DNA of 64,000 nucleotides from Psammoneis japonica (lineage: Eukaryota), in the NCBI GenBank assembly GCA_008632985.1, contig QPGO01000068.1, forward strand, positions 124,001 through 188,000. Direction: 5' to 3'. Under the pieces are notes generated by a model. It saw only the letters and a list, made by a program, of their open reading frames with translations. It made no database searches and was not told the origin of the DNA. This document shows, piece after piece, positions 9,055-48,100 of this stretch; the first letter of the stretch is position 1, and each line of letters opens with the position of its first letter. The position numbers and the translations under genes were made by a program.

Positions 9055-9081
9055 TCAGAGTAAATTGTGCTACTATCACAT

Positions 9082-12146: not shown

Positions 12147-12152
12147 ATACGG

Positions 12153-16096: not shown

Positions 16097-16173
16097 GGTG
16101 CAAGGAATTCGCAACCGTGGCATGTAGAAACGCGTAGGTCAGTACCGGCGAAGGGTGATGGCGGTGTTCTTCA

Positions 16174-17961: not shown

Positions 17962-18215
17962 CTACAGTTTTCCTTGCTGCAACGTCTTCTTTCGCGATTC
18001 GTTCCTCTTCAAAAGCCAGCGAGCTCTTGCGTCATCGAGGTAGCCAAAGAATTGCTGGTACCGTTGGAATTTTCCGTGTGGCCCCTCTTTGACGGTTCCG
18101 TAGTGATGGAGCCGATGGTCTCGAATGCCAACAAACCATCTTCGCCAAACATTAGGAGCTTTCGCCGCTGCATGACTCTCTGCAAGCATCCAAGTGACCA
18201 GCATGTTGTGCAGAG
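17962..18215 (-). pseudogene. Fatty acid hydroxylase/sterol desaturase family gene, 3' part
   Basis: ESH and HRLHH His boxes; reads in frame with the part beyond 28030 once the LTR composite and one TSD copy are removed (…RLARAL|HNMLVTW…). Confidence 0.8.
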
Positions 18216-18579
18216 TGCCGAGCATCACGGTCATCTATATTCATTCGTATGTTCATTCGTGGGTGTCAGCCTGGTGTCAAAAGTGTCAAAAGGATGTCAA
18301 CGATGACACTTTCTAGAAACCTCTTCTCCTTTCTCGATACATCTCGATGCCTCTCGAAAGATTGTTTCTTTACATTTCTGCGCGGTTTCTTAGCATTAAT
18401 TCTACGAGATTTCGGAGTAGCCGAATCTCTTTCATTTCTTCTCACAATGTTGGCAACAGTCAACTTTACAACGCTACTTTGTGCCATTACTTGGCGCCAC
18501 TTGGCATGGTAAATTTACTCCCAAACACCCATTCATCTCTCTTGAGACACATCCACCGATCACATTGTCCTGACCAGAC

Positions 18580-21500
18580 ATGTCAGCAGAAAACTGCCCA
18601 TTCGAACTCAAGCGTCCTGACTGCTCTGAGGAAGAGCGACGCAAAGACCAACTCGTGTCTTTTGAAAGCCCCATTGATCCTGACGATCCAGATGGGCTTA
18701 AAACTACGATCGAGGTGCGTAAGTTAGCTTCAACTGAACCGGAAGATGTTCTTACCTTCTGGTCAAACTTCGATGAACTTGTCAACGATCTCGGCGCGGC
18801 TGAAGGACAGCCACGTTTCCGGCTCGTGACCAGACTCATGACCGGAACACCAAAAGACGACTGGGAAATCGTCGTAAACGAACACGAAAACCGCGACCAA
18901 GTTACATTCGATGCTTGTCGTGAAGAATTTCCACTCCAATGCATGGACAGAGAAATTGCCCTTGATGCCAAGGAATGGCTTCAAAGCCTTGAGAAACCCA
19001 GGAACCAAACTGTCAAGTCATTTGTTAATGACATCCGTCGCTTTAATGAGTTGATTGATGTCAACCAAAGATGACGCCGAAAGAGTTCCGTCATTCACGG
19101 AAGCGGAATTGTCCGTAATCCTTCGAAAATGTGGACCAAGATCATGGGCCGAAACTCAGACTAAAGCCCGTCTTCGCAACTTAAACTTGAACGACCAAGC
19201 TCAATGCTACGAGACTCTCCGACGTATGGAACAACGTGGTGACAAAGGGTCTGCCGACAACAACAGACGCAATGACAATCGGAGTCGACGCAACAACGGT
19301 CGAAACACGCGTCGCGGCCAGAATGACGACCAAAATCGCGACACCAGGAACAGGAACCAAAACAATCGTGAACAAACATGTCCAATCCATGGCGTTGTAC
19401 ATCCGAACGGTCAAGAGTGCAATGTCATCCGTCGTGAACGTGAAAATTATGAGCGGAACCGCGCAAATCGGAATGCGCCGAATCAACAAAACAACTCTCG
19501 AAACGAGCCGACACACCGCTGTCCCACACGGAGCCGCACACGGAACGTCGAAAACAATGATGTGGACTCCAAAGCTAGTCGCTCCGCTTCTAACGATGTC
19601 GACAGCGTCGCGTCAGATGATGTCAACGATGTTTTTGAAGACGTCACGTCTCTTCTGGATGATTCCATTGAATCCGAAATAGAAGACAATCTTACCACGG
19701 AAGCGCGTGTCCAGATGATTGATGCTCATTCTGGAATGCACAAGTTCCGTGTTGCTTTGCTCGATGCCGGTGCAAATCGCAATTTTGTGAAGCGCTCAGC
19801 CCTTCGCGGGATTCCTCACAAAATCCACAAATGTGACGTTCCCGTCAAAGGCCGTTACAGTGCCGTTAATCTGCACGAGATTGCGACGCTGACATTGAAG
19901 TTCCCAGACTTCGCATCGTCCAAGAAGGTTTCCGTCGATGCTCACGTGGAAGACAAAGCCACAGGAAAACACGACATTGTCATCGGAAGAAAAACCGCCA
20001 CAGAAATGGGACTCGTTTTTGATTTTCGACATCAGACAATCACGTGGGACGATGTCACCCCATCCATGTGATCCAAGGGCTCTTTCGACCAAGTCGAAGT
20101 TAATGCAATTCATCCGGCGATGCTGAATTACCCAAGTTCTTCCAGAATGCCGTCAACCGTCAGGTTCGAGGTGTGACGAGCAACATGCACGACAAGCACA
20201 ATTGTCGCGACATGGTTCTATGCTGCAAACACCTTGATGACGATCAACAGCACCAACTCATCGAACTCTTCGGACGACACCCGCAATTGTTCGATGGTGC
20301 ACTTGGAGCTGCACCCGGCAAACCCGTCCATTTGACCCTGAAACCAGGATCGCGTCCATGCTGTGCGAAAGCTTGCACTGTTCCGCAAGCGTCACATCCC
20401 ATGGCTCGCAAAGAAGTGGATGAATTGGAAAAAATCGATGTTGTTGCGCGCAAACTTCACTCTCCTTGGGGCGCATCCTGTCTTTTCCGATCGAAGAAAA
20501 GCGGTGGCATCCGTTTCTTATCCGATTTACGGAAACTCAACGAGTGTCTCGAACGGCATCCACATCCACTGCCCATTGTCGACGACGTCGTATGGAAAAT
20601 GAACGGCTTTACCCATGCAACATGTTTGGACCTCAACCGAGGCTGCTGTCACTTCGTGCTTGACGACGAGTCAAAAAAACTCTGCGGCATCATCCTGCCG
20701 TGGGGCAAGCATTGCCACAACCGCCTGCCGCAAGGAATCAAACCGGCAAGCGATGTTTTTCAAGCTCACATGACAGACATTTTTCATGATGTGGAAGATG
20801 TCATAGTCTGCATCGACAACATCATCCTCTTGCCAAGAACAACTTCAACCATCACTGTCAACGACTCGAACTCGTCTTGCAACGGCTCCTCGTGAACAAT
20901 CTTCACGCACATGTCGAAGAATCCCATCTCGCCACCAAGACCGTCGACTGCTTGGGCTGTGCCATGACTGCAAAAGGCACTCAGCCTCAGAAAAAGAAAA
21001 TCCTGCCCTTGCTTCGCTTCGCTAGCCCTCAAAACCGTCGACAATTACGTGGTTTCATCGGGTTCGTGAATTGTTGCAAGAAATTGTGGTGCCGACGCAG
21101 CCACACTCTTACGCCCTTAACTGCGCTGTCATCAGACAAAGTCAAATTCAAGTGGACTGACGTCCACACGGAAGCTTTCAATCAGATGAAAAAAATTGTG
21201 GCGCGCGAAATCCTCCTCCGATTCCCCGACTTCTCTCAACCTTTCAAGATCTATCCGGATGCGAGTGATTGTCAACTTGGTGCAGTGATCACTCAAGATT
21301 TTGACGATGGCGAATGGCCAATTGCATTCTGCAGCCGAAAATTGTCTCAAGCGCAACGAAACTACACGACAATGGAAAAAGAGCTGCTGTCGCTCGTGGA
21401 AACGACCGAAAATTTCAAAAGCATCCTTTTTGGTCATCGATGCCACCCATTTGCCGATCACAAAAATCTCACATTTGACAAATTCAAGTCAGAACGCGTC

Positions 21501-22722
21501 AAACGCTGGCGTTTGCTTCTCGAGGAGTGCGATTGCTCTTTCGAGCACCTGCCAGGCCACAAGAATGTCGTGGCTGATTTTTTGAGTCGCCATCCTGTTG
21601 TCCAAGTCGATCAAAGCGATTACGAGGAAATGACTTCGTTGGAAATCGATCCTTCGACATTCCCCGTTACTTTCGACATTGTCGCCGACCATCAGAAAAA
21701 AGATTCTGCTCTTCAGCAACGACTCGACAAGTCCGAATCCTGCTCAGCCGAACCATTCAACGGAAAACAGATTGTCCTTTACAAGAACAAGATTGTCCTC
21801 CCTCCAACGCTTTTTCCTGCAGTTCTACGGTGGTGCCATGAAACTCTCTGCCACCCTGGTGCCAATCGCACCTGCCAAACTTTGGCTTCACATTTTTACA
21901 TTCGCGACATGCAGACGAAAGTCCGCACTTTTGTCCGCAAGTGCCGCACGTGTTCCAAATCCAAGCGCACTGCGGCAAACTGTGGCGAATTGCCTCTTCC
22001 AGATGCTGCTCACAAACCTTGGCAGGCAACTCAAGTCGATCTTTTCGGTCCCTGGACGTGTGCCGACAAAAATGGTGTCGATCGCAAAATCAGAGCCGTT
22101 TCAATTGTTGATGTCGCAACCCGTTGGGTCGAACTTGCGAACTGTGAGTTCAAAACGTCCGAAGACATTTCACTTGTCGTCGATCGCGAGTGGTTTTGTC
22201 GCTATCCGCGACCAGAAATTGTCATTTATGACAACGGTTCCGAATTCACTTCCGAGTTTACAGATCTCCTCTACAGTTGTGGTGTTAAACCGAAACCTGC
22301 AACAATCAAGAATCCTCAAGCCAATGCGTTCGTTGAACGCATTCATCAAGTGACAGCCGATTCTCTCCGTGCGATGGATCTCCCTTCTCGCGATCATGAT
22401 GAAGACACAATTCATGGAATTTTGCAATCCGTTGCATGGGCCTTGCGCAGTGCCTGCCACACTGCCCTCATGTCGTCTCCCGGACAAATTGTCTTCGGTC
22501 GAGACATGGTCATTTCTGCTGCTTGTCTTGCGAACTGGAAAATGATTAACACCCGTCGCAAGCGCGATGTCCTGCGCAACAATCTCCGCGAAAACGCAAA
22601 ACGTCTTGCTTGCGACTGCAACATCGGCGATCAAGTCTTCGTCATGACCAAAGACATCCAACGCAAACTCAACACCAAAGATGGTCCTTTCCGCATCGTG
22701 CGTGTCCATGCCAATGGAACCG
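18580..22722 (+). pseudogene. Gypsy family A gag-pol (gag, PR, RT, RNase H, IN), hypermutated, broken near the 3' end
   Basis: LLDAGA protease, RT (LPQG, CIDN), DAS RNase H, HPG/C-x2-C zinc finger and DDE integrase, in Gypsy order. Confidence 0.9.
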
Positions 22723-25700
22723 AAGTGGCGCCAAGCAACAGCACAAAGCAGCGTTGTAAAGTTGACTGTTGCCAATGTTGTGAGAAGAAATGAAAGAGAT
22801 TCGGCTGCTCCGAAATCTCGCAGAATTAATGCTAAGAAACCGCGCAGAAATGTAAAGAAACAATCTTTCGAGAGGCATCGAGATGTGTCAAGAAAGGAGA
22901 AGAGGTTTCTAGAAAGTGTCATCGTTGACATCCTTTTGACACTTTTGACACCAGGCTGACACCCACGAATGAACATGCGAATGAACACAGATGACCGTGA
23001 TGCTCGGCACTCGCTTCCCCAATTGAGACGTTAGAAGACAGGGTGAAGACGGCGGATGTTGACACGTTCAGTGACGTGAGGCGAGCGCTGGATGGCAACG
23101 GTTCCATTGGCATGGACACGTGCGATGCGGAAAGGACCATCTTTGGTGTTGAGTTTGCGTTGGATGTCTTTGGTCATGACGAAGACTTGATCGCCGATGT
23201 TGTAGTCGCAAGTGAGACGTTTTGCGTTTTCGCGGAGATTGTTGTGCAGGACATCGCGCTTGCGACGGGCACCAATCATTTTCCAGTTCGCAAGATGAGC
23301 AGCAGAAATGACCATGTCTCGACCGAAGACAATTTGTCCGGGAGACGACATGAGGGCAGCATGGCAGGTGCTGCGCAAGGCCCATGCAACGGATTGCAAA
23401 ATTCCATGAATTGTGTCTTCATCATGATCGCGAGAAGGGAGATCCATCGCACGGAGAGAATCGGCTGTCACTTGATGAATGCGTTCAACGAACGCATTGG
23501 CTTGAGGATTCTTGATTGTTGCAGGTTTCGGTTTAACACCACAACTGTAGAGGAGATCTGCAAACTCGGAAGTGAACTCGGAATCGTTGTCACAAATGAC
23601 AATTTCTGGTCGCGGATGGCGACAAAACCACTCGCGATCGACGACAAGTGAAATGTCTTCGGACGTTTTGAACTTACAGTTCGCGAGTTCGACCCAACGG
23701 GTTGCGACATCAACAATTGAAACGGCTCTGATTTTGCGATCGACACCATTTTTGTCGGTGTGCGTCCAGGGACCGAAAAGATCGACTTGAGTTGCCTGCC
23801 AAGGTTTGCAAGTGGCATCTGGAAGAGGCAATTCGCCACAGTTTGCCGCAGTGCGCTTGGATTTGGAACACGTGCGGCACTCACGGACAAAAGTGCGGAC
23901 TTTCGTCTGCATGTCGCGAATGTAAAAATGTGAAGCCAAAGTTTGGTGGGTGCGATTGGCACCAGGGTGGCAGAGAGTTTCATGGCACCACCGTAGAACT
24001 GCAGGAAAAAGCATTGGAGGGAGGACAATCTTGTTCTTGTAAAGGACAATCTGTTTTCCGTTGAATGGTTCGGCTGAGTAGGATTCGGACTTGTCGAGTC
24101 GTTGCTGAAGAGCAGAATCTTTTTTCTGATGGTCGGCGACAATGTCGAAAGTAACGGGGAACATCGAAGGATCGATTTCCAACGAAGTCATTTCCTCGTA
24201 ATCGCTTTGATCGACTTGGACAACAGGACAGCGACTCAAAAAATCAGCCACGACATTCTCATGGCCTGGCAGGTGCTCGAAAGAGCAATCGTGCTCCTCG
24301 AGAAGTGAACGCCAGCGTTTGACGCGTTCTGACTTGAATTTGTCAAATGCAAGATTTTTGTGATCGGCAAACAGGTGGCATCGATGACCAAAAAGGATGC
24401 TTTTGAAATTTTCGGTCGTTTCCATGAGCGACAGCAGCTCTTTTTCCATTGTCGTGTAGTTTCGTTGCGCTTGAGATGATTTTCGGCTGTAGAATGCAAT
24501 TGGCCATTCGCCATCGTCAAAATCTTGAGCAATCACTGCACCAAGTTGACAATCACTCGCATCCGGATAGATCTTGAAAGGTTGAGAGAAGTCGGGGAAT
24601 CGGAGGAGGATTTCGCGCGCCACAATTTTTTTCATCTGATTGAAAGCTTCCGTGTGGACGTCAGTCCACTTGAATTTGACTTTGTCTGATGACAGCGCAG
24701 TTAAGGGCGTAAGAGTGTGGCTGCGTCGGCACCACAATTTCTTGCAACAATTCACGAACCCGATGAAACCACGTAATTGTCGACGGTTTTGAGGGCGAGC
24801 GAAGCGAAGCAAGGGTGGGATTTTCTTTTTCTGAGGCTGAACACCTTTTGCAGTCATGGCACAGCCTAAGCAGTCGACGGTCTTGGCGGCGAGATGGGAT
24901 TCTTCGACATGTGCGTGAAGATTGTTCACGAGGAGCCATTGCAAGACGAGTTCGAGTCGTTGACAGTGATGGTTGAAGTTGTTCTTGGTAAAGAGGATGA
25001 CATTGTCGATGCAGACTGTGATGTCTTCCACATCATGAAAAATGTCTGTCATGCAAGCTTGAAAAACATCGCTTGCCGGTTTGATTCCTTGCGGCAGGCG
25101 GTTGTGGCAATGCTTGCCCCACGGCAGGATGACACCGCAGAGTTTTTTTGACTCGTCGTCAAGCACGAAGTGATGGTAGCCTCGGTTGAGGTCCAAACAT
25201 GTCGCACAGGTAAAGCCGTTCATTTTCCACACGACGTCGTCGACAACAGGTAGTGGACATGGATGCCGTTCGAGACACTCGTTGAGTTTCCGTAAATCGG
25301 ATGAGAAACGGACACCACCGCTTTTCTTCGATCGGAAAAGACAGGATGCGCCCCAAGGAGAGTGAAGTTTGCGCGTAACAACATCGATTTTTTCCAATTC
25401 ATCCACTTCTTTGCAAGCCATGGGACACAACGCTTGCGGAACAGTGCAAGCTTTCGCACAGCATGGACGCGATCCTGGTTTCAGGGTCAAATGGACGGGT
25501 TCACTGGGTGCAGCTCCAAGTGCACCATCGAATGATTGCGGGTGTCGTCCGAAGAGTTCGATGAGTTGGTGCTGTTGATCGTCATCAAGGTGTTTGCAGC
25601 GTAGAACCATGTCGCGACAATTGTGCTTGTCGCACGCATTGCTCGTCACACCTCGAACCTGACGGTTGACGGCATTCTGGAAGAACTTGGGTAATTCAGC

Positions 25701-27447
25701 ATCGCCGGGATGAATTGCATTAACTTCGACTTGGTCGAAAGAGCCCTTGGATCGCATGGATAGGGCAACATCGTCCCACGTGATTGTCTGATGTCGAAAA
25801 TCAAAAACGAGTCCCATTTCTGTGGCGGTTTTTCTTCCGATGACAACATCGTGTTTTCCTGCAGCTTTGTCTTCCACACAAGCATCGACGGAAACCTTCT
25901 TGGACGATGCGAAGTCTGGGAACTTCAGTGTCAGCGTCGCAATCTCGTGTAGATTAACGGCACTGTAACGGCCTTTAACGGGAACGTTGCATTTATGGAT
26001 TTGTGAGGAATCCCGCGAAGGGCTGAGCGCTTCACAAAATTGCGATTTGCGCCGGTGTCGAGCAAAGCAACACGGAACTTGTGCATTCCAGAATGAGTGT
26101 CAATCATCTGGACACGCGCTTCCGTGGTGAGATTGTCTTCTATTTCGGATTCGATGGAATCGTCTAGAAGAGACGTGACGTCTTCAAAAATGTCATTGAT
26201 GTCATCTGACGCGACGCCATCGACATCGTTAGAAGCGGAGCGACTAGCTTTGGAGTCCACATTGTTGTTTTCGACGTTCCGTGTGCGGCTCCGTGTAGGA
26301 TGGCAGTGTGTCGGCTCGTTTCGAGAGTTATTTTGTTGATTCGGCGCACTCCGATTTGCGCGGTTCCGCTCATAATTTTCACGTTCACGACGGATGACAT
26401 TGCACTCTTGACCGTTCGGATGTACAACGCCATGGATTGGACATGTTTGTTCACGATTGTTTTGGTTCCTGTTCCTGGCATCGCGATTTTGGTCGTTGTT
26501 CTGGCCGCGACGCGCATTTCGACCGTTGTTGCGTCGATTCCGATTGTCATTGTGTCTGTTGTTGTCGGCAGACCCTTTGTCACCACGTTGTTCCACACGT
26601 CGGAGAGTCTCGCAGCATTGAGCTTGGTCGTTCAAGTTTAAGTTGCGAAGACGGGCTTTAGTCTGAGTTTCGGCCCATGATCTTGGTCCACATTTTCGAA
26701 GGATTACGGATGATTCCGCTTCCGTGAATGACGGAACTCTTTCGGCGTCATCTTCGGTTGGCATGGGCATGACATCAATCAACTTATTAAAGCGACGGAT
26801 GTCATTGACAAATGACTTGACAGTTTGGTTCCTGGGTTTCTTAAGGCTTTGAAGCCATTCCTTGGCATCAAGGGCAATTTCTCTGTCCATGCATTGGAGT
26901 AGAAATTCTTCACGACAAGTGTCGAATGTAACTTGGTCGCGGTTTTCGTGTTCGTTTACGACGATTTCCCAGTCGTCTTTTGGTGTTCCGGTCATAAGTC
27001 TGGTCACGAGCCGGAAACGTGGCTGTCCTTCAGCCGCACCGAGATCGTTGATAAGTTCATCGAAGTTTGACCAGAAGGCAAGAACATCTTCCGGTTCAGT
27101 TGAAGCTAACTTGCGCACCTCGATCGTAGTTTTAAGCCCATCTGGATCGTCAGGATCAATGGGGCTTTCAAAAGACACGAATTGGTCTTTGCGTCGCTCT
27201 TCCTCAGAGCGGTCAGGACGCTTAAGTTCGAATGGGCAGTTTTCTGCTGACATGTCTGGTCAGGACAATGTGATCGGCAGACACATCTCAAGAGAGATGA
27301 ACAGGTGTTTGGGAGTAAATTTACTGTGCCAGGTGGTGCCAAGTGACAGCACAAAGTAGCGTTGTAAAGTTGACTGTTGCCAATGTTGTGAGAAGAAATG
27401 AAAGAGATTCGGCCACTCCGAAATCTCGTAGAATTAACACCAAGAAA
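22723..27447 (-). mobile_element. Second, inverted copy of the family A element inside the composite
   Basis: LTR 22723-23009 (lacks its terminal 4 bp), PPT 23010-23020, pol ORF 23031-25877, gag ORF 25931-27253, partial LTR 27327-27447. Confidence 0.9.
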
Positions 27448-28029
27448 TTGTGGTGCCAACGCAGCCACACTCTTGCGCCCTTGACTGCGCTGTCATCAGA
27501 CAAAGTCAAATTCAAGTGGACTGACGTCCACACGGAAGCTTTCAATGACATCGGCGATCAAGTCTTCGTTGTGACCAAAGACATCCAACGCAAACTCAAC
27601 ACCAAAGATGGTCCTTTCCGCATCGTGCGTGTCCATGCCAATGGAACCGTTGCCATCCAGTGCTCGCCTCACGTCACTGAATGTGTCAATGTCCGCCGTC
27701 TTCACCCTGTCTTCTAACGTCTCAATTGGGGAAGCGAGTGCCGAGTGTCACGGTCATCTACATTCATTCGTGTGTTCATTCGTGGGTGTCAGCCTGGTGT
27801 CAAAAGTGTCAAAAGGATGTCAACGATGACACTTTCTAGAAACCTCTTCTCCTTTCTCGACACATCTCGATGCCTCTCGAAAGATTGTTTCTTTACATTT
27901 CTACGCGGTTTCTTAGTGTTAATTCTACGAGATTTCGGAGCAGCCGAATCTCTTTCATTTCTTCTCACAATGTTGGCAACAGTCAACTTTACAACGCTGC
28001 TTTGTGCTGTTGCTTGGCGCCACTTGGCA

Positions 28030-28698
28030 CAGAGCCCTTGCCAAGCGTGACTTTACAACTCCCCACGGAGTGAATCTCTGCACGAGAACATTCACAAGCA
28101 CCTGCAGTGACCCATCAATGATTGAGTGCCGAAGAGCATCCCTCGCCTCTCGCCTCCAACGAGCCAGCATGAGAATGGTGTCTTGCGTGCAATGGCCTCA
28201 GAACAGGGAGTTCATGCATGGCCCAATGAATAAAAAAGAAAATAGCATCGTACAGGACAATGCCACTCATGACTTCGGCAGCAAGATGCAATGATCCGTC
28301 GACATCTTGCGGAATGCCATCAGGGAGTGCACCATTGGCTGGAGGTGGGACAACACATTTCAGAATGAAAATTCCCACCCAACATGCCGAAAGTGAGTTA
28401 TAAACAGGTGACCATCCAATTCCAATGGTTGACACAAAGCTCTTGTCGACGGAAACACCGGCTTTTCGCTCGTAGAACCAATGCAAATTGACAAAAACAC
28501 CGAAGGAAGCTGCAGCAACAAGTGGGTCCATCCACCACGCTCTGAAAACTCCATTCTCCATGTCGAAAGACGGCATTTGTGTCGCACGTATCCATTCCTG
28601 CATCATGGCGTTAATTTTCCCAATACGCCATGCCAAGGATTAGTCTATGGGCAAAGGAGCTTTCCAACCATCTAAACTGAGCCTGCCCGAGCCGTCAT
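28030..28698 (-). pseudogene. Fatty acid hydroxylase/sterol desaturase family gene, 5' part
   Basis: YDAIFFFIHWAMH and HARHH boxes; a 7-bp tandem duplication (ctcgcct, 28142-28155) frameshifts it; start uncertain. Confidence 0.8.
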
Positions 28699-33428: not shown

Positions 33429-36400
33429 ACACAAGCAACTCAATGTCAATGTGGGTGATTCAATGGCAAAGTTTGTTCTTCTTTCCTTGCTCTGCCGCAA
33501 GGGGCTGCTCTTTGTGTCAGTGTGTTGATGCATCAGAGTCACAGTTGCTGCCCACAATTGCTGGATGGTTGCAGAGCTTGTGGACATGTGATTAAACAAC
33601 AGGATTGATGGGCCATGTTTGATCAGTGTCAGATCAGTTGCTGGCTGGCCTCCCACTTCCAGCACAATCCTGCAGCATCTGCAGAAACTTCAAATGGCTG
33701 TGTGCCAAATTTTGTGGGGCAGAGCTTTTTCAATGCAGCATGGATCCAAATCTGCACCATGCACCATGTTGCGTCCTTTCAAAAATCAACATCTGTTGGT
33801 GTTGTTGGTGCTGCCCACATGTTGCAAGGTGTGTTGCAATGGTGCATGTCTGCCCTCTTGTTCCAGTCAATTTTGACTTGATCTGCTGCTCTCTTCTTTG
33901 GCACGTGTTCTTTTGTCACTTTTTTAGAGTTCACCATGTGCCCTGTGTGTGCACTGGGCACTGAAAAAGAAGATGTGTTGCGACTTTGTCGTTGTGAAAA
34001 TTGTGAGCTAGTTTAGAGTAGAGAAAGTGGGATCGTGCGAATGGGGAATCTTGCCAAATCCCCATTCATTCGCATTTGGATCGCATCAAATCGATCGTGC
34101 GTTCACATTGTGGATCGTGCGAATCAAGCCATCACGCGCCATGCACGAGTGATGTCATCATGTGGAATCACGCTGCCATCGTGGGCCAGACGATGGGCCA
34201 GTGTGCTTCACACGGATGCTCTCTTGGCATCCTTCTGGAATTGCCCAAGACCTGGAGCCACGCCCTCCTGTGGTCGTGCTTCCCAGGCACGCGTCAACAA
34301 TGCCACGTTGCTGCGTGCAAGAGGCTCACACACGGTCTCACCATGTTGTCCAGTGGTGAGGCATGCTGCACACTCCCCCATGATCAGGGCCATTGAGTGA
34401 CAGGATGTCTTGCTGGTGACAGGTGCAATCTGCCGCAGATTGCACGCATCTGTCAGCGCTCCGTTCTGGATGCGCAACGTGCCGTTGTCAAACACACGGA
34501 CAACTCTGGTGGGTCCTGCACAGCTGTCAGAACCACATTTAGAGGATTGTTCCTGTTTGACAAGCATCAATTGCCCTGCGGTGCATTGACACTCCTTGCA
34601 TTTCTGATTTTCACGCTTGTCATTTAAGTGGACAAGCTTCTGCTTTCTGGTTTCCATGTGCTTCCACTCAGCACGATGGGCAACAGACAAAACCGCATCA
34701 CGTCCGAAGACCAATTGCATGGGACTTGCACGCGTGGTCGTGTGCACTGCAGCTCTGATGGCGAAGGCTGTGCCCCATGCATGCACTGGGCACTGAAAAA
34801 GAAGATGTGTTGTGACTTTGTCATTGTGAAAATCACGAGCCAGTTTAGAGCAGAGAAAATGGGATCGTGCGAACAGGGAATCTTGCCAAATCCCCATTCG
34901 TTCGCATTTGGATCGCATTGAATTGATCGTGCGTTCGCATTGTGGATCATGCGAATCAAGCCATCACGCGCCATGCACGAGTGATGTCATCGTGTGGAAT
35001 CACGTTGCCATCGTGGGCCAGACGACGGGCCAGTGTGCTTCACACGGATGCTCTCTTGGCATCCTTCTGGAATTGCCTGAGACCCAGAGCCACGCCCTCC
35101 TGTGGTCATGCTTCCCAGGTGCGTGTTGACAATGCTACGTTGCCATGTGCAAGAGGCTCATGCACGGTCTCGCCGTGTTGTCCAGTGGCGAGGCACACTG
35201 CACACTCCCCCATGATCAGGGCCGTTGAGTGACAGGATGTCTTGCTGGTGACAGGGTGCAATCTGCCGCAGATTGCACGCACCCATCAGCGCTCCGTTCT
35301 GGACACGCAACGTGCCGTTGTCACACACACGGACAACTCTGGCGGGTCCTGCACAGCTGTCAGAACCGCATTTAGAGGATTGTTCCTGTTTGACAAGTGC
35401 CAATTGCCCTGCGGTTTGTTGATGCTCCTTGCGTTTCTGATTTTCACGCTTGTTGTTCAAGTGGGTGAGCTTCTGCTTTCTGGTTTCCATGTGCTTCCAC
35501 TTGGCACGATGGGCAACAGACAAAACCGCATCGCATCCGAAGACCAATTGCATGGGACTTGCATGCGTGGTCGCATGTGCCGCAGCTCCAACAGCGAAGG
35601 CCACTGCGGAGAGGATGCCACTCCATGGGTCATCTTCGTCCAGCTCCATGTCCTGCACTGAAAAGAAACGCACCATGTTGCCAAGTGTCTGGTGTGCATG
35701 TTCCACTGTGGCATTCGCCTGTGGATTCCGTTTGCTTGTGGGTTTCTTCAAAATCCCACAGTCATTTTTAATCATCTGGCTAAATTCTGCCACAAATTCT
35801 GTCCCACGGTCACAAACCACCTGGGTTGGCCACGGACATCTGTGTGGCCATGTTTGTTCCATGACGTTTGCTGCAACGTCTGCGCGTTTCGCAGACACTT
35901 CTTTAATCTCGAACCACCCGGTTGCTGGGTCAATCATTGTGACTGCCCACAATTGCAAAGTGTCCTTTCCGCGTCTTTGAATTTTATGTGGCCCCATCAC
36001 ATCTGTGCATGGAGTCTCCCATGGAATTGTCTCTGCGACCTTTTCTGGTGGCTTCCCATGACGCTGCGTTCGGCGTTTTGTCTTCTGGCATCGATCGCAC
36101 TCAACGCACGTAGAATGCACCGTAGACCTCACACCAGGCCAACAGAAGTGCTGGGCAATGGACATTTCCGTGCGTGTCTCACCTGGATGACACAGTGTCT
36201 CGTGGTGCCATTCAGTTAGCGGAACCTGCAATGACTGTGGTGCTGCGATTTTGTCCTTATGACAGATTGACTGTCGTGGTGACCCTCCCCCACGATGCGC
36301 GCAAATGGAGCAGTCGGACGAGTCCTCAGCTCGTGAGAGCAGGCGCTTGTCCTTTTGTCATGCTTTTTGAATGCGCTTGAAGCCAACAGGCAAAGATGGC

Positions 36401-36896
36401 TCATCTTGCGCGTCTGTGTTAAAAGCTTCATGTGAAGGATGACTCAATGGAGTGTCTTTTACATCCGGACTGGCCTCGGAAGGCAAGCTGGGTGCCAGTT
36501 GAAGGCGACTAAGAGCGTCAGTGACTGGGTCATGGGCACCCTTGACATGGCGTAATTCGGGGCCACACTCTTCGCATGTCAACCGCCAGCGCATGGCGTG
36601 CTTGGTGTTGAATGCTTTGTGCGTAAGATTTTTGTGATCAGTGCACATGATCATGCGATGACCAAGGAGAGTCGTTCGAAATTCTTTCAACGTCTCCACA
36701 ATGGCGAGTGATTCTCTCTCCATTGTTGCACAATTTAATTGCGCACTGTTGAGCTTTCTGCCATGAAAGGCAACAGGTTCATTGTCTTGGGATGTGACTG
36801 CTCCCAATTGACATTTAGAGGCATCGGCATGCATCTCAAAGGGTTTGTTAAAATTGGGATGTGACAATAAAACATCATCCGATGTCACCCGTTTAA

Positions 36897-37429
36897 TGCA
36901 CTCGCACAACGAGCTGATGGATGGCAAGACGATTTGACATTCTGAATTTTTTTTGTGCTGGAAACTTCGTGCGCGCTACACGAGCATCGCTAAAAATCGG
37001 CAACATGACGGCGGTGCGTTGTCGTAATGATGGCGACGACATTGACGTGTCCTGGAGTCTTTGAGCATTACAGACATTTAGATTGTTAAATTTGCGAACA
37101 CACAAAGTCATGAAATGGACCAGGAGCAGCCTTCGTTCAATCGCAAAACGTCGCACCAATGCTGAGCTCTGTTTTTTGACTGTCATTTGATGCATTCAAT
37201 CATCGAACGATTGTGAGCTCGTCCGGGCAGCTTTCTTTGCGCATTGATGTTCTTGAGAGCATCATTGACAATGCCATTGAGTGCACACTTTAAAGTCGTT
37301 CTGTAAGACAGTCAGAAAAATGTCATCGTCATCATCGGCGTCGACGGCAATTTGTCGCGCAAATCGCAAAAAAAGCACCACAGTCGTCTGCCCGACATTG
37401 CGCCACTGTGCGCTGGTTGCGCGAATGCC
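36897..37429. mobile_element. TTAA-targeted MITE inserted in RT/RNase H
   Basis: Absent from the outer copy; flanked by TTAA (36893-36896) and TTGA (37430-37433); imperfect 18-bp TIRs tgcactcgcacaacgagc / gctggttgcgcgaatgcc. Confidence 0.75.
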
Positions 37430-40296
37430 TTGACGGTTTCGAACGCCTCGTCTTCAATGGACGTCCACTCCCACTTGACAGTCTCGCTTACGAGTCGTGC
37501 CAGCGGAGCCAAGACTTCAGAACGTCCAATCCACGTGTCGCGGCAGCAGCTCACCATGCCAATGAATGAACGCAGGTCGCGTTTGTTGGTTGGGGTCGCG
37601 ATTCGCTCAATGGCGTCGACTTCATCAGGTGTTGGTCGTGTTCCGTCTCCATTGACCAGATGACCCAAGCATTCTAATTGGGTTTGACAGAAATGAGATT
37701 CAGTTGCGTCAACTTTTAGCCCTGCTTTCTGGACCCTCAATGAAACTTCTTCAAGTTTGTTGAGGTGATCTTCATGGGTGCCTTTCGTCACGATGAGAAG
37801 GTCATCTAAGTGCGTTTGAACGAACGATGGATCTTCAAACAAGCCTGACATGCGTTCTTGGAAAATGTCTGGCGAATTGCATGATCCCATGGGCAATGCC
37901 TGCATCTCACACTTGCCCCACGGGAAGATGAGCGTGCAGAGCTTCTCACCATCAGTGTCCAATCGTACATGATAATAGCCCATGTTTAAATGCAGCGATG
38001 TAGCCCACATAAAGCCTTCGAGCTTAAGTAGCACATCTTGGATATGAGGAATCGCATAAGGCAATCGCTTGATCCGTTTATCCAGCTCTCTGAAATCATT
38101 AATAAAGCGTACCGTTAAATCTTTCTTCGGTATGATAAATGATGGAGCTGCCCATTGGGATCGGTTAACGCGTTTGAGAACACCGATACGTACTAGGCGT
38201 TCTACTTCTTTACGTAGCGTAGCTTCGTACGCACGAGGTACTTTATACGGACGAGCGTGGTATGGTTCTACACCCTCCTTGAGTTGGATATGGTAGGGTT
38301 CTCCCTTCCATTCTCCTAATGTCCCATCAAATAAGGACTCATGGCGTCTCAATAGTGCCAAAAGGTCGTTTTGTTGAACTATAGAAAGTCCTATTGTCCC
38401 TCGCGTTATGTCCTCGAGGCAGGCCGGCGCGTACTTAGCGTCTAAAATACGCGAAATCCGGTCGGTTTCCGAAGATAAGGCTTCTGGATCTTGAAGATAG
38501 AAGGAGGTTTCCACCGTAGCATCTACGTGCCTCATTGGTACTTCTCCATTGACTAATGGCCACTCTATCATCTGTTTAGAGAAGACAATATCAATGCCTT
38601 GCGTCTCCAGAATGTCACGTCCAATAATCATATCGTACTTGCCCAACTTTCCGTTGTGTACGTGGACGGTATGTTTAAGTTCTGCAGTTTCGCATAATTC
38701 TGGTAACCAAAATTTAACGGTACAGTCGTTAGACGTACTGAACGAGCCTGCTACCGTAGTCCAGTTTGTCTCAGCCGTTGAATGGCTTCGCAGACGTTTA
38801 CAGTATCGACTATCGAGAAGAGTACTGCTGGCGCCACTATCTAGTAGTGCCTTAATAGTTTGAGTCTTGCCCTTGCAATGTTTAGTATTCATAGCTATAA
38901 ACAAGATTGGAGTAAGATGAGTCTTTTTCACTCGTTTACGGGATTGGCCTACAACACGTGTACGATGGTAATTTAGTTGTTCATTTATACATTCATCAAA
39001 TGTATTAAAACTACCTGTGTCGTGTCGGCCCCCTTCTCAGGCGTCCGAGTCTTCGGAATCACTTAAGTTGAGGTCGCGGAAGTGATTGAGCTCCTCCTCG
39101 CGTGCCTTACGCTTTTTCTGGGCGTTGGCAAAGAACTCCTCGACCTTCGATCCGATGAGAGCATTAACATCTTCCTCATTCTGAGGTTTTGCACTAGGCT
39201 TGCTGCCTCCATCATTGGAATGTCCAGTCTTGACACGTTTCACGTGGTGCTTGAGCTGACGGCAGTCCTCCGCATGGTGTCCACAGCCAGTCCCGTGCAG
39301 CACACACGACTTCTGGGTGTTCCGTTGGGTCGTGATCAACGACTCAGGATTGTCCGTTCTACGTCCCCGCTTGCGTGGAACCTTAGCATGTTGGTCCTGG
39401 TTACCTTCGGCAAGCTCGACCTGCTCGATGCGCTCGCAGAACTGCACAAATTCGGCGACAGCATGCGCCAACGGGTCAAAATTCTGCAACGTCATGAACT
39501 TCTGCCATGCGTTTGGCACACCGTGCTCGAACACATCGCACAGTTCGTCATCAGGTGATGGTGCCAGTGTTTCTCCATCCTCCATCATGGGTGGAAACTG
39601 AGAGACACAGCCGTTAATTTCAACAGCCCTCGCCACGCAGTCACGAGTGGAAACCTCCGCGGGCTTGTGTGTGAAGCGCCGCAGATGACGCTTCTGCAAT
39701 GGTGCCGCCCCATGTGGGAAGATACTTTCCTTTAGCTTTGCGACGCATGCTGCACACGTGGCGTTGGTTTGGGATGCCTGCTTGTCAGCGGCATTGTCAA
39801 ATGACGTCAGAGCATCGCTCTGCAGCAGGTCACGCACAAGGGCAAATTTTGCTGGCCCGGTCATGATGTTTTGTCCTTCGTGCACGCGATCCACGTTGCG
39901 CAGAAAGATTGGGAGTGTCTCGCATGTAGCCGCAGAAAGGTGCGGAATGCCCATCTCGTGTGTTGGACCATCTGGATCAGTGGGGTTGTTGCGCAGCTTG
40001 AACGTCTGGCACTCGCCCTGCTGCAGCTCTTTCTTCTCCGGCCGTGCGAACGGAATCGGCGGCTCAACCCGCTTCTTCATGGTCGTTTTAAGATTTGTCG
40101 GTCCTGCCAACATTTCGTAGTTTCGTTTCTGTAGATTTTGTCACCTCGCACAACATGCGGGAGTGACATTGCTGTGCCCTGTGTGTGTGCCAGGCGCTGA
40201 AAAAGAAGATGTGTCACGACTTTGTCGTTGTGAAAATTGTGAGCTAGTTCAGAGCAGAGAAAATGGGATCGTGCAAATGGGGAATCTTGCCAAATC

Positions 40297-40724: not shown

Positions 40725-43700
40725 GCCAAATCCCTGTTCGTTCGCATTTGGATCGCGTCAAATCGATCGTGCGTTCGCATTGTGGATCGTGCGAATCAAG
40801 CCATCACGTGCCATGCACGAGTGATGTCATCATGTGGAATCACGTTGCCATCGTGGGCCAGACGACGGGCTGGTGTGCTTCACACGGATGCTCTCTTGGC
40901 ATCCTTCTGGAATTGCCTGAGACCTGGAGCCATGCCCTCCTGTGGTCATGCTTCCCAGGCGCGTGTCAACAATGCTGCGTTGCCACGCACAAGAGGCTTG
41001 TGCACGGTCTCGCTGTGTTGTCCATTGGTGAGGCACACTGCAGCTGCTGCGGAGAGGATGCCACTCCATGGGTCATCTTCGTCCAGTTCCATGTCCTGCA
41101 CTGAAAAGGAACGCACCATGTCACCAAGTGTCTGGCGCACACGTTCCACTGTGGCATTCGCCTGTGGATTCCGCTTGCTTGTGGGTTTCTTCAAAATCCC
41201 ACAGTCATTTTTAATCATCTGGCTAAATTCTGCCACAAATTCTGTCCCACGGTCACAAACCACCTGGGTTGGCCACGGACATCTGCATGGCCACGTTTGT
41301 TCTACGACGTTTGCCACGACGTCTGTGCGTTTCGCAGACACTTCTTCAATCTTGAACCACCCGGTTGCTGGGTCAATCATTGTGACTGCCCACAATTGCA
41401 AAGTGTCCTTTCCGTGTCTTTGAATTTTATGTGGCCCTGTCGTGTCCATGCATGGAGTCTCCCATGGAATTATCTCGGTGACCTTTTCTGGCAGCTTCCC
41501 ACAACGCTGCGTTCGGCATTTGTTTCTGACATCGATCGCACTCAACGCACGTAGAATGCACCGCAGACCTCATGCCAGGCCAACAGAAGTGCTGGGCAAT
41601 GGACATTTCCGCACGTGTCTCACCTGGATGACACAGTGTCTCGTGGTGCCATGCAGTTGGCGGAACCTGCAATGACTGTGGTGCTGCGATTTTGTCCTTA
41701 TGACAGATTGACTGTCATGATGACCCTCCCCCACGACATGCGCGAATGGAGCAGTTGGACGAGTCCTCAGCTCGTGAGAGCAGGCGCTTGTCCTTTTGTT
41801 GTTCTTTTTGAATGCGCTTGAAGCTAACAGGCAGAGATGCATCGTCTTGCGCATCTGCATTAAAAGCTTCATGCAAAGGACGACTCGATGGAGTGTCTTT
41901 TGCATCGGATTGGCCTCGGAAGGCAAGCTGGGTGCCAGCCGAAGGCGACCAAGAGCATCAGCGACTGGGTTGTGGGTGCCCTTGACATGGCGTAATTCGG
42001 GACCGCATTCTTCGCACATCAACCGCCAGTGCATGATGCGCTCGGCATTGAGTGCTTTGCATGTAAGATTTTCATGACCAGCACATGTGAGCACACGATG
42101 ACCAAGGAGAATTGTTCGAAATTCTTTCAACGTCTCCACAATGGCGGGTGATTCTCTCTCCGTTGTTGCACAATTTAATTGCGCACTGTCAAGCTTTCTG
42201 CTGTAAAAGGCGATGGGTTTATTGTCTTGGGACACAACTGCTCCCAATTGACATTTAGAGGCATCGGTGTGTGTCTCAAAGGGTTTGTTTAAATCAGGAT
42301 GTGACAACAAAACATCATCCGATGTTGCCCATTTGACGGTTTCGAACGCCTCGTCTTCAACGGACATCCACTCCCACTTGACAGTCTCGCTTGTGAGTCG
42401 TGTCAGCGGAGCCAAGACTTCAGAATGTCTGATCCACGCATCACGGCAGTGGTTCACCATGCCAATGAATGACCGCAGGTTGCGTTCATTGGTTGGGGTC
42501 ACGATTCGCTTGATGGCGTCGAATTTATCAGGCATTGGTCACATTCCGTCTCTGTTGACCAGATGACCCAAGCACTCTAATTGGGTTTGACAGAAGTGAG
42601 ATTTAGTTGCGTCAACTTTTAGTCCTGCTTTCTGGACCCTCAACAAAACTTCTTCAAGTTTGTTGAGGTGATCTTCGTGGGTGCCTTTCGTCACGACGAG
42701 AAGGTCATCCAAGCACGTTCGAACGAACGACAGATCTTCAAACAAGCCCGACATGCGCCCTTGGAAAATGTCTGGCAAATTGCACAACCCCATGGGCAAC
42801 ACCTGCATCTCACACTTGCCCCACGGGAAGATGAGCGTGCAGAGCTTCTTGCTGTCAGCATGATCGGATGTGACAACAGCCCATGTTTAAATCCAGCGAT
42901 GTGGCCCACATGAAGCCTTCAAGCTTGAGCAGCACATCTTGGGTGTGAGGAATCGGAGAGGCAATCGCTTGATCTGTTTATTCAGCTCTCTCAAATCATC
43001 AACAAAGCGCACCGTTAAGTCTTTCTTCGGCATGACAAATGATGGAGCTGCCCATTGGGATTGGTCAACGCGTTTGAGAACACCGACACGTGCCAGGCGT
43101 TCTACTTCTTTGTGCAGTGTAGCTTCGTGCGCACGAGGTGCTTTACACGGACGAGCGTGGTGTGGTTCTGCACCCTCCTTGAGTTGGATGTGGCAGGGTT
43201 CTCCCTTCCATTCTCCCAATGTCCCATCAAACAAGGACTCGTGGCATTTCAACAGTGCCAAAAGGTCATTTTGTTGAACTGTAGAAAGTCCCACTGTCCC
43301 TCGTGTTATGTCCTCGAGGCAGGCCGGCGCGCACTTGGCGTCCAAAATGCGTGAAATCCAGTCGGTTTCCGAACACAAGGCTTCTGAATCTTGAAGATAG
43401 AAGGAGGTTTCTACCACAGCATCTGCGTGCCTCATTGGCACTTCTCCATTGACCAATGGCCACTCTGTCATCTGTTTGGAGAAGACAACATCAATGCCTT
43501 GTGTCTCCAGAATGTCACGTCCAACAATCACATCGCACTTGCCCAACTTTCCGTTGTGCACGTGGACGGCATGTTTAAGTTCTCCAGTTTCGGATGATTC
43601 TGGCAACCGACATTTAACGGTGCAGTCGTTAGACGCACTGAACGAGCCTGCTGCCGTAGTCCAGTTTGTCTCAGCCGTTGAACGGCTTCGCAGACGCTTG

Positions 43701-44608
43701 CAGCATCGACTGTCGAGCAGAGCACTGCACTGCTGGCGCCACCATCTGGCAGTGCCTCAATGGTTTGAGTCTTGCCCTTGCCATGTTCAGTGTTCACAGC
43801 TGCAAACAAGATTGGAGCAAGATGAGTCTTTTTAACTCGTTTGCGGGATTGGCCTGCAACACGTGTACGATGGTAATTCAGTTGTTCATTGACACATTCA
43901 CCCAATGCATTAAAACTGCCTGTGTCGTGTCGGCCCCCTTCTCCGGTGTCCGAATCTTCGGAATCACTTGAGTTGAGGTCGCGGAAGTGATTGAGCTCCT
44001 CCTCGCGTGCCTTGCGCTTTTTCTGAGCGTTGGCAAAGAACTCCTCGACCTTCGATCCGATGAGAGCATCAATGTCTTCCTCATTCCGAGGTTTTGCATT
44101 GGGCTTGCTGCCTCTGTTGTTGGAATGTCCAGTCTTGACATGTTTCACGTGGTGCTTGAGCTGACGGCAATCCTCCGCATGATGTCCACAGTTAGTCCCG
44201 TGCAGCATGCACGACTTCTGGGTGTTCCATTGGGTCGTGATCAACGACTCAGGATTGTCCGTTGTACGTCCCCGCTTGTGTGGAATCTTAGCATGTTGGT
44301 CCAGGTTACCTTCGGCAAGCTCGACCTGCTCGATGCGCTCGCAGAACTGTGCAAATTCGGCGATGGCATGCGCCAACGGGTCAAAATTCTGTAACGTCAT
44401 GAACTTCTGCCATGCATTCGGCACACCGCACTCGAACATGTCGCACAGTTGTCATCAGGTGATGGTGCCGGTGCTTCTCCATCCTCCGTCACGGGTGGAA
44501 ACTGAGAGATGTGGCCGTTAATTTCAACAGCCCTCGCGACACAGTCACGAGCAGAAACCTCTGCGGGCTTGCGCATGAAGCGCCTCAGATGACGCTTCTG
44601 CAACAGCA

Positions 44609-45127
44609 TGAGGCTACGACCAGCACAATGTGCAACATAGAACATTCAGAACCACACATGTTTCATTTGAATGCATGTCAAATGTCTGAATGATCGGCAC
44701 ATAAAATGACTGCACATGACTCCTGGTGTAGAATTTGTGCCAGTCTACGTGCTTAAAGCTCTGTGAACTGAGGTGCAACAAAAATGACTTACATTGGGTG
44801 AGTTCAAATGTCGGAGCCGCCAAAATCGACCGAGACGCCGGCCACGTCTTTTGACAAAACAAAGCACTTGAATGTGTTGTGTGAAGCAGTCAGAGTTGAA
44901 AAAGCAATGTCAAAATTTGAGAACTGATTTGAGTGGCAAACATTGTCAAATTCTTCTAATTGTTTTTGACAGTGTCGGTTTTTGAGTGCAAATTGCACGG
45001 GTTGCATCTGCAAAAACACCCCAATCATTTGCCAAAAACCATCATCGTTAAATGTCGATGTGCAAAACTTGCAATGCCGGTGTTCGGGACGTTTTTTACA
45101 GTTCACATTGTGCCAGTCGTAACTCCA
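44609..45127. mobile_element. TA-targeted (Tc1/mariner-type) MITE inserted in gag
   Basis: TIRs tgaggctacgaccagcacaatgtg / cacattgtgccagtcgtaactcca; flanks CA and TG reconstruct to a TA TSD; a related end occurs at ~52825-52920. Confidence 0.75.
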
Positions 45128-48100
45128 TGCTGCCCCATGTGGGAAGATGCTTTCCTTTAGCTTCCCGATGCATGCTGTGTACGTGGCGTTGGTTTGGGAT
45201 GCCTGCTTGTCAGCGGCATTGTTGAATGACGTCAGAGCATCGCCCTGCAGCAGGTCATGCATGAGGGCAAATTTCGCTGGCCTGGTCGTCATGTTTTGTC
45301 CTTCGTGCACGCGATCCACGTTGCGTAGAAAGATCAGGAGTGTCTCACATGCAGCCGTGGAAAGGTGCGGGATGCCCATCTCGTGCGTTGGACTGTCCGG
45401 ATCAGCGGGGTTGTTGCGCAGTTTAAATGTCTGGCACTCACCCTGCTGCAGCTCTTTCTTCTCCGGCCATGCGAACGGAATCGGCAGCTCAATCCGCTTC
45501 TTCATGGTCGTTTTGAGATTTGTCAGTCCTGCCAACATTTCGTAGTTTCGTTTCTGCAGATTTCGTTGCCTCGCACAACATGCGGGAGCAATGTCACTGT
45601 GCCCCATGTGTGTGCCAGGCGCTGAAAAAGAAGATGTGTTGCGACTTTGTCGTTGTGAAAATTGTGAGCTGGTTTAGAGTGGAGAAAGTGGGATCGTGCG
45701 AATGGGGAATCTTGCCAAATCCCCATTCGTTCGCATTTGGATCGCATCAAATCGATCGTGTGTTCGCATTGTGGATCGTGCGAATCAAGCCATCACGTGC
45801 TTTGCACGAGTGATGTCATCGTGTGGAATCACGCTGCCATCGTGGGCCAGACGATGGGCTGGTGTGCTTCACACGGATGCTCTCTTGGCATCCTTCTGGA
45901 ATTGCCTGAGACCCAGAGCCACGCCCTCCTGTGGTCGTGCTTCCCAGGCACCTGTTAACAACACTGCGTTGCCACGCACAAGAGGCTCATGCACGGTCTC
46001 TCGCCGTGTTGTCCAGCAGCGAGGCATGCTGCACATGGGTTTTGTTCTGTGAGTGCTGCTTTTTTTGCACTCCCCTTCTCTCCACAATCTGCAGCTTGCT
46101 CTTTCTGCATTTTTGGCACTCGGCTTTTGCTCTTGTGTGGACCACCTTTTTCACAATGTTCCTCCACACATGATGCTTCAGCGATGCAATGGCCATTTGT
46201 TTGCTGCTGTTCTCTTGGGCTGTTCTCAAAAAAGATTGTTGCAACACCTCATTTTTCATCACCTTCTCCATGCAGAAGTCAAGTGGTTGCATTTCATGAG
46301 CTCGGGGGGGGGGGGGGGGGCAGTGAGGAGCCAACACTTTGTGCTCTTCCCTGCAATCTTTGCTCAGATTGAAGCAATTTTCAACACAGTTTCATTGCAG
46401 CAGACTGCTCTCATCTCCTCATGTGATTTTCACAAGGCAGGTCATGTTGCACTTGTTGGATGCCAAGTGTGTGGAATGTGCCACACTGCACTTGTTGCCC
46501 CAGTTGCAAATGCAAGCCTTTTTTGCCTTCCTTTTTGTGCCAGTTGCAGCCTTGGTGCCAGGTGCCATTGCACCGCAAATCCACGAATGAAACAAAGTGG
46601 CTCTGATGGTGCTTGCATCCACTCCATTGTCCCATTGATGGCAGCATTGATGTTTGTTGTTCAAGTGTTGTCGCACATTGTGGCATTCAGAAAAATAAAA
46701 AAAATTGAAAAGCTGCTCTGCACCACAAAATTTGGCGTGCAAAAACTCAAAGCCCCTGCAGCCCATGTCTGGTGGGGGCAGCCGGCAACTGATCTGACAC
46801 TGATTGAACAAGGATGAACTGTGTTGAAGCTGATGGTGGGCCCATGCAGGCCTGCCCATCCTGCTGTTCAATTGTGTGTCCATGACAAGACCAAAAGCAC
46901 ACCCGCCTGACAACAATTGCCGCACATTGCTGGACTCCACTTGTTTTTGTTCCCCTCCCCTGAGCCCTTTCAGTCATTCCTTCCTGCAAAATTTCCCTCA
47001 TTTCCCAGGTTTCTCCCAAAAAGGCAAGGTTCCCCTTGTCACACTGGCCATTTTGGGGAATCCTCAAATGGGTGAAACCAAACCAAGCAAAGATGAAGGT
47101 GGGACTTTCTGCCAACTTCTGTGTGCCACATGTGTTTGATGCCAAATCCATGCCAGGGACACATGGAAGTTTGTTTCACTTTCCAACAAAGCCGTCCATG
47201 GTCCTGCACTTTTGTGCATTGACCCGCTGGAGTTTGTGTTGCAATTTTTCAGCAGAATGACTGTTGAGGACAAACAAATGATTGTTTGTGTGTGTGATTG
47301 TTTGGGTCAGTTACAATGTTGCCATTTGACATGAGCATCACATCAGTTGGCAAGCAAGTCTGAATTTTGGTGGTTTGTTTCCATTTTTGAACTGCAAGCA
47401 TTTTTTCCCCACCTTGTCACAGACACAAAATTTTGTCAGGAGGAGCAGACAAATGGAGGCAGTTGGGAAAATCTTGTCTGTGACAGAGACAGACAGAGAC
47501 AAACCAAAAGGATTGATCAAGTGACATCATTGCCTCCACTGTTGCATCATGTAAAATGAGCACTTTCTCTTCTTTCTCCAATGGCGCTGCAGCACACATG
47601 AAGCCATGAAAGACTCAGAACAAGAGCAGCGAATGTGCAGCCACCAAAAATTTCAAAAATGCACTCCCTTTGATGACCAACCTTCTTCACGTCACAATTG
47701 TGCATGGAGCCAGGGCTCCATTCCCAAGGGACTTCAGACACATTGCTGCACAATGTCATTTTGCTGGAAACAAAGACTTGCAGAGAGACAGCAGCTTGTT
47801 GGAATGACCCTGATTTTGGTCCTGTGGATGTTCAGACCAGGAGTGTCAAAGAGCTGAGCATGGAAAATGCCATTTTGTGTGTCTGCCACAGGCAATGTGT
47901 CAGAGCAAAGATTTTCAAGGGCCAGGGCTGTCCTGCTTGATCTTTGCACCATTTTCTTCCTCAGCGCAAATGAGTCAGAAGCAAAACAGTGGAGTGTTTG
48001 TTGTGCAGTGCAACATGGCACAAGGAACCCTGCACTGCAAAATGGGAAAGCAACTTGGACTTGTCTCATGAAGAAATGTCAACAATTGCTTGCCAAGCAA

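Follow-up and report, generated by a model that had tools for sequence, protein, structure and literature searches.

Repeated DNA in a 64,000-nucleotide stretch of the diatom Psammoneis japonica (contig QPGO01000068.1 of assembly GCA_008632985.1, positions 124,001 to 188,000 of the forward strand; hereafter the window, numbered from its first letter) has undergone a DNA-level hypermutation, restricted to the repeats, that turns the T:A pairs of TpA dinucleotides into C:G and leaves CA or TG, never both changes at one site. TpA sites are hit independently of one another, with equal frequency on the two strands, and a T:A pair is a hot target if its A precedes a pyrimidine or, equivalently, if its T follows a purine, in the approximate order TAT ≥ TAC > TAG, TAA. 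Since two hot pairs are present in RTAY (R, purine; Y, pyrimidine), this class vanishes first; RTAR and YTAY carry one hot pair each and so change mostly to RCAR and YTGY, and YTAR is the class that survives longest. We consider it about 75% probable that the whole reading is correct, namely that a TpA hypermutation confined to repeats, with a hazard that depends on the flanking base, would be the work of a single enzyme acting on duplex DNA, with an adenine deaminase as the likeliest candidate.

The direct comparison was made in TE1, a family of Gypsy long terminal repeat (LTR) retrotransposons located at 33.9-46.0 kb, where two tandem copies, A and B, lie on the minus strand. The copies are ~90% identical, and transitions make up 389 of the 419 differences between them. 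The relevant parts are:

35604..40172, minus strand: internal region of copy A, with integrase, reverse transcriptase (RT) and gag-like open reading frames (ORFs); TpA observed/expected ratio (O/E) 0.12-0.28 outside the unmutated patch
37950..39050, minus strand: unmutated patch of copy A, 1.1 kb, TpA O/E 1.10, sharp borders
38061..38460, minus strand: segment of copy A treated in a preliminary description of this DNA, in the protease/RT-coding part and within the unmutated patch; 34 TpA
41047..45597, minus strand: internal region of copy B, hypermutated along its whole length
about 42961..43360, minus strand: copy B partner of 38061-38460, in which 27 of the 34 TpA positions read CA or TG

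Within the patch, copy A alone keeps TA at 69 sites, both copies keep it at 14, and there are no discordant sites (CA in one copy, TG in the other); outside it, both TE1 copies are mutated. The patch escaped TpA changes and most CpG changes, and the remainder of copy A is saturated. Because the segment 38061-38460, which is covered by an ORF carrying a match to the RVT_1 domain (37312-39036, minus strand), belongs to this patch, copy A looks ancestral and copy B derived there. The context make-up of the patch is ordinary (27 RTAY, 46 asymmetric and 19 YTAR sites, where asymmetric denotes RTAR or YTAY). It could have arisen by gene conversion from an intact copy, as a protected tract or through an assembly join; contigs of a public sequencing run, X1, differ from the window inside it at five positions (37966, 37992, 38082, 38348 and 38877).

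To evaluate target preference, copy A was compared with copy B at the 91 TpA sites of the patch, two of which had changed to GA and were dropped from the fits. Mutated sites numbered 26/27 for RTAY, 21/26 for RTAR, 15/19 for YTAY and 13/19 for YTAR. The direction of change at asymmetric sites followed the flanks, with RTAR going to CA 17 times and to TG 4 times, and YTAY going to TG 12 times and to CA twice, so that 29 of 35 hits fell on the pair whose A precedes a pyrimidine (binomial p 1e-4). Counted per strand-site, A>G changes were seen at 72/180 TA, 3/162 AA, 5/121 CA and 2/136 GA, giving 1.5-4% outside TA. When TA sites were separated by the 3' base, the values were 30/54 for TAC, 23/43 for TAT, 11/38 for TAG and 8/45 for TAA, or 53/97 for TAY versus 19/83 for TAR after pooling. 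A competing-risk likelihood model, in which each TpA presents two mutually exclusive targets with hazards set by the 3' base, returned a TAY:TAR hazard ratio of 3.3 (likelihood-ratio test, p 5e-6). The base at +2 had no effect in the patch (TAY followed by A, C, G or T: 11/18, 13/26, 16/30 and 13/23), and the effect at -2 was accounted for by competition from the opposite strand. The preference is approximately 3-5 fold, and is not absolute. Both strands are affected to about the same extent (TA>CA 52, TA>TG 38; 36 vs 38 at discordant sites), and a runs test did not find strand clustering of the hits (42 runs vs 35 expected).

The preliminary description had reported, for the segment 38061-38460, that all RTAY sites were mutated in copy B and that asymmetric sites changed on the strand where A is followed by a pyrimidine. 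These observations are confirmed, and the counts were reproduced exactly: RTAY was mutated at 11/11 sites (5 to CA, 6 to TG) versus 16/23 for other TpA, comprising RTAR 6/8 (all CA), YTAY 4/8 (3 TG, 1 CA) and YTAR 6/7, and the seven survivors were all non-RTAY (2 RTAR, 1 YTAR and 4 YTAY). Changes at asymmetric sites took the expected direction in 9 of 10 cases (RTAR>RCAR 6/6, YTAY>YTGY 3/4), and no TA>CG double hit was present. The concern that the sample was small is answered by the persistence of the flank bias in the whole patch, in the survivors of the window and in independent metagenomic loci; in the part of the patch outside the segment (57 sites) the direction rule held at 20/25 asymmetric sites (p 0.004), and the held-out TAY:TAR hazard ratio was 3.7 (p 8e-5).

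The interpretation attached to those counts is partly supported. The motif had been called a strand-resolved 5'-TAY-3'; the context rule stands, and the resolution of strand and base falls away, since A>G in TAY is T>C in RTA. The proposal of an enzyme-like sequence preference holds in that the process behaves as an intrinsic mutator preference, strictly TA-specific and set by the base 3' of A. DNA polymerase eta, which had been offered as one model because it prefers WA, is rejected, since AA>AG is not raised (3/162 AA vs 72/180 TA). The other model was the tRNA adenosine deaminase TadA, whose natural target loop is U-A-C-G. This analogy fails past +1: in the patch, T does no worse than C at +1 (TAC 30/54, TAT 23/43), among survivors T ranks above C, and G at +2 (16/30) is unremarkable.

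The same preference was recovered from the TpA sites that survive in mutated repeats of the window (31.8 kb in total: TE2, TE1 outside the patch, 46036-53000 and 54001-58000), with 26.9 kb of host DNA as baseline. The features concerned, none of them assigned a strand, are:

18213..28032: TE2, a second Gypsy family; an inverted pair, 18386-22722 vs 27447-23099, 95% identical
46036-53000, 54001-58000 and 33001-34000: old degenerate repeat DNA, TpA O/E 0-0.09, CpG O/E 0.05-0.39, CA+TG O/E 1.6-2.0 (46036-53000: TpA 0-0.06, CpG 0.05-0.22, CA+TG 1.74-1.96)
1001..18000: host-gene DNA serving as baseline (ABC-F, two PP2C genes, others), TpA O/E 0.44-0.69, CpG O/E ~1
28101-32000 and 58001-64000: extra host baseline

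Among 289 surviving TpA in the repeats, 12 were RTAY, 153 asymmetric and 124 YTAR, compared to 317, 511 and 167 among the 995 TpA of host DNA (chi-square p 6e-30). The density ratio of repeats to host was lowest for ATAT (0.011), followed by ATAC/GTAT (0.027), GTAC (0.065), ATAG/CTAT (0.094), ATAA/TTAT (0.135), CTAG (0.25), CTAC/GTAG (0.27), CTAA/TTAG (0.47) and GTAA/TTAC (0.57), and reached 1.26 for TTAA; these ratios are near-additive per strand. In an additive per-pair model for the window, a pyrimidine at +1 adds 1.18 to the log-hazard (p 6e-41), and, relative to A at +1, the values are 2.26 for T, 1.01 for C and 0.77 for G.

Relatives from independent assemblies were obtained by using the RT protein of the window as a query against metagenome contigs, which yielded 55 loci. 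TpA O/E was bimodal among them: six loci (L039, L042, L027, L046, L031 and L038) were hypermutated, with TpA O/E 0.01-0.22 and CA+TG 1.4-1.84, and the other 49 had TpA O/E of at least 0.58. CpG O/E was 0.15-0.23 in three of the six. After L031 was dropped from the survivor counts, being 99.6% identical to L038, the 58 survivors comprised 4 RTAY, 16 asymmetric and 38 YTAR sites, compared to 3825, 6503 and 3177 in the 49 other loci, and the pyrimidine term was 1.40 (p 5e-12). Two pairs of mutated metagenomic loci showed 24 and 22 CA<>TG swaps versus 0-4 control swaps. When the mutated loci were set against unmutated relatives, which at 70-75% identity are too diverged for this purpose, the direction rule scored 12 sites for and 6 against.

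The polarity of the process is TA to CA/TG, and a change of CpA to TpA, as in repeat-induced point mutation (RIP), is excluded. CA<>TG discordant sites between copies numbered 74 in TE1 and 63 in TE2, with every other double-transition swap at 0-8 and TA<>CG swaps at 0 in both families; such discordance requires that the site began as TA and that each copy was then hit on a different strand. The TE2 arms differ by 196 transitions and 1 transversion, and the 63 swaps account for 126 of those transitions. TpA O/E is 0-0.3 and CA+TG O/E 1.2-2.0 in the repeats, compared to TpA O/E of 0.44-0.69 in host genes, where CA+TG O/E is ~1.03-1.3. Scoring of the copy peptides with Pfam gave only a weak protease match, at 17.7 bits, for copy A and no match for copy B, and was replaced by an outgroup test with 12 proteins from intact metagenomic relatives: among 54 differing residues, 36 favour copy A and 9 favour copy B, with 9 ties. 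Tyr is conserved in the outgroups at 6 of 7 positions where copy B has Cys or His, and copy B carries at least 8 stops besides these Tyr>Cys/His changes. In run X1, 4242 contigs match copy A at ≥80% identity, so the TE1 family is highly repeated. Transitions made up 449 of 488 variant places between these contigs and copy A, and, among the 40 listed of 490, which served for polarity only, the window had CA/TG where the contigs had TA at 17 and the opposite at 1.

A slower, separate decay of CpG to TpG/CpA appears to run in the same repeats, resembling deamination of 5-methylcytosine in methylated transposons. It changed 13 of 130 CpG strand-sites in the patch and has brought CpG O/E to 0.05-0.2 in the oldest repeats, and the CpG sites that survive have no R/Y flank bias. 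TE2 has lost its TpA (O/E 0.12-0.30) with CpG intact (O/E 1.0-1.46), so TpA loss is much faster than CpG decay.

The closest known system is the TpA-specific hypermutation of integrated DNA of nucleocytoplasmic large DNA viruses (NCLDV) and virophages in the chlorarachniophyte Bigelowiella natans, described by Mettrop et al. (bioRxiv 10.64898/2026.01.13.699255). According to the preprint's main text, 231 mutations arose de novo in two integrated viral regions, in some mutation-accumulation lines only, and 230 of them were A>G/T>C, every one of these at TpA; TpA-depleted, CpA+TpG-enriched clusters also include reverse-transcriptase and DDE genes, and an adenine deaminase was proposed. That main text, supplements apart, contains no flank analysis and no mention of CpG (10.64898/2026.01.13.699255). 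The likeness lies in A>G/T>C changes at TpA, giving TpG/CpA, that are confined to foreign or mobile DNA and spare host genes; as far as the preprint describes that system, ours differs in having a diatom host, tandem and inverted LTR retrotransposons, and fossil rather than de novo evidence. We suggest that the two are the same kind of process, in which one enzyme with an intrinsic site preference would target silenced or foreign elements as duplex DNA, most likely by deaminating adenine to inosine, which would be read as G.

RIP of Neurospora and other fungi is similar in that dinucleotide-specific transitions on both strands bring repeated and mobile DNA near saturation and destroy its reading frames. 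However, RIP makes TpA from CpA by C>T changes, and the process here destroys TpA (A:T>G:C); with the polarity reversed and TpA depleted in the repeats, fungal RIP does not describe these data, and nothing in them indicates duplication itself as the trigger. TadA and ADAT2-3, which act on tRNA A34, and ADAR, which acts on double-stranded RNA (dsRNA), share the conversion of A to inosine read as G and a required or preferred 5' U/T, but are RNA enzymes.

Several results weigh against our interpretation. The directly polarised sample is a single pair of copies (89-91 sites). The fit of the additive survivor model to the window is imperfect (Pearson X2 18.2, df 6, p 0.006), host DNA rather than the ancestors of the elements serves as its baseline, and G and A at +1 rank in one order in the window and in the other in the metagenomic loci. 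The direction rule was weaker than in the patch at single-hit asymmetric sites of TE1 outside it (9 for, 2 against), and at those of TE2 the counts were 17 for and 11 against (p 0.34). Discordance between copies is frequent at asymmetric sites (32 cases in TE1 and 32 in TE2); the cold pair must therefore be hit regularly, and the preference can be only several-fold. TE2 also has a sense-strand skew, with 21 YTAY versus 4 RTAR survivors, that is shared by its discordant sites (24 vs 8), and which we attribute, without proof, to ancestral composition. Finally, we infer adenine deamination from sequence differences of a fossil kind.

The alternative that survives best, although we think it unlikely, is that the process and its rule are as described and that the thymine of 5'-R-T-A-3' is attacked, e.g., by oxidation of the TET/JBP type to 5-hydroxymethyl- or 5-formyluracil, leading to T>C. 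5-Formyluracil mispairs with G. The A of 5'-TAY-3' and the T of 5'-RTA-3' form the same base pair and are indistinguishable in sequence, so either could be the attacked base, and the equal use of both strands without clustering is expected under either chemistry. The window, however, offers nothing that points to thymine modification, and adenine deamination, itself a proposal, is the sole one published for this signature as far as the main text of the Bigelowiella preprint goes.

It is less probable still that the flank bias reflects context-dependent lesion repair, or composition of or selection on the elements, instead of targeting. Survivor counts do measure net loss against a host DNA baseline, and TE2 shows a compositional skew. 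However, the 29/35 direction comes from setting ancestral directly against derived sequence in dead copies, where selection is not involved, as the Tyr>Cys/His changes and stops of copy B show, and the context make-up of the patch is ordinary. A bias in repair may still play a part.

Very little probability attaches to ADAR- or ADAT-like RNA editing (A>I after U) of element transcripts that was then fixed by reverse transcription. The 5' U/T requirement resembles that of ADAR and of tRNA deaminases, a resemblance also argued in the part of 10.64898/2026.01.13.699255 cited above, and the TE2 inverted pair could form dsRNA. In contrast to what editing followed by retrotransposition would leave, there is no sense-strand bias (52 vs 38, and 36 vs 38 at discordant sites) and no same-strand clustering, and non-coding degenerate repeats are also saturated. 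ADAR edits in strand clusters and prefers a 3' G, which is opposite to TAY, and neither clusters nor a 3' G preference was found here. The B. natans events, moreover, are described in the preprint as arising in integrated single-copy DNA. Reverse polarity (a RIP-like CpA>TpA change in copy A) or an assembly or base-calling artefact at modified bases can practically be set aside: although two copies alone cannot be polarised and run X1 contains just 0.66 of the sampled words, CA<>TG discordance can arise only from an ancestral TA, the outgroup proteins side with copy A by 36 to 9, repeats are poor rather than rich in TpA with host genes unaffected, variation in run X1 is dominated by transitions with TA at 17 among the 40 places listed, and the same signature is present in independent metagenome assemblies.

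The window as a whole is eukaryotic with few introns, and its host genes encode an ABC-F protein, two PP2C phosphatases, a Fam20C-like kinase, a nucleotide-sugar transporter and a BMT5-like methyltransferase. The best match of the ABC-F protein is 64% identical, and its named best matches are all diatoms (a Fragilaria cluster at 59%, Phaeodactylum at 54%). Two further sets of features, without assigned strand, belong to TE1:

33937..35601: two tandem LTR-containing repeat units of 832 nt each, with many CA/TG discordant columns
40173-41046 and 45598-46035: related LTR copies

In the four-copy LTR alignment, asymmetric sites showed CA and TG at 1:1 for RTAR and 6 CA to 5 TG for YTAY, counts from which ascertainment hides concordant changes, so that they carry no information on direction. 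The LTR copy at 40173-41046 contains an insertion of ~430 nt (40182-40600), rich in ATCG/CGAT, that is missing from the three other LTR copies. Copy A also has a 544-nt segment (36886-37429) without counterpart in copy B; contigs of run X1 show a matching 537-nt skip (36892>37430), and depth over 36886-37429 is about twenty-fold below that of the rest of the element. The arms of TE2 are arranged head-to-head with 376 nt between them.

In the old repeat blocks, both self-complementary YR steps are nearly gone, and long spurious ORFs are present because TAA and TAG were lost. A less mutated island (53001-54000, TpA O/E 0.37) lies inside a saturated block, and a tandem duplication with a 283-285-nt unit, 93-99% identical, is found at 55490-56057 within degenerate repeat DNA. 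The first kilobase (1-1000) is TpA-poor (O/E 0.16), and 952-1346 is 74% identical to 53653-54074.

Hypermutation of foreign DNA at TpA is already known from the 2026 Bigelowiella preprint, to judge from its main text; full-text searches of the literature gave no other report of TpA>CpA/TpG hypermutation, and none in diatoms. What is new here is the flank preference, the finding of the process in a diatom genome and among metagenomic relatives, and its separability from the decay of CpG. For annotation, hypermutated elements lose Tyr, Ile and stop codons, acquire long false ORFs and can easily be misread. The flank rule provides a quantitative fingerprint (additive per-pair hazards, no +2 effect and no strand clustering) by which the question of the enzyme becomes testable. 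The signature in diatom LTR retrotransposons and their metagenomic relatives suggests that the system occurs widely among marine and freshwater protists. We raise, tentatively and at slightly less than even odds, the idea that diatoms, environmental relatives and Bigelowiella run an 'inverse RIP', in which a dedicated base-modifying enzyme would erase the TpA of silenced mobile DNA in duplex form with a T-A-Y (R-T-A) preference graded T>C>G/A. If this is true, it would constitute a genome-defence editing system spanning the stramenopiles, alveolates and rhizarians (SAR), and the T-A-Y preference could help to pick the enzyme out from candidate deaminases or dioxygenases.

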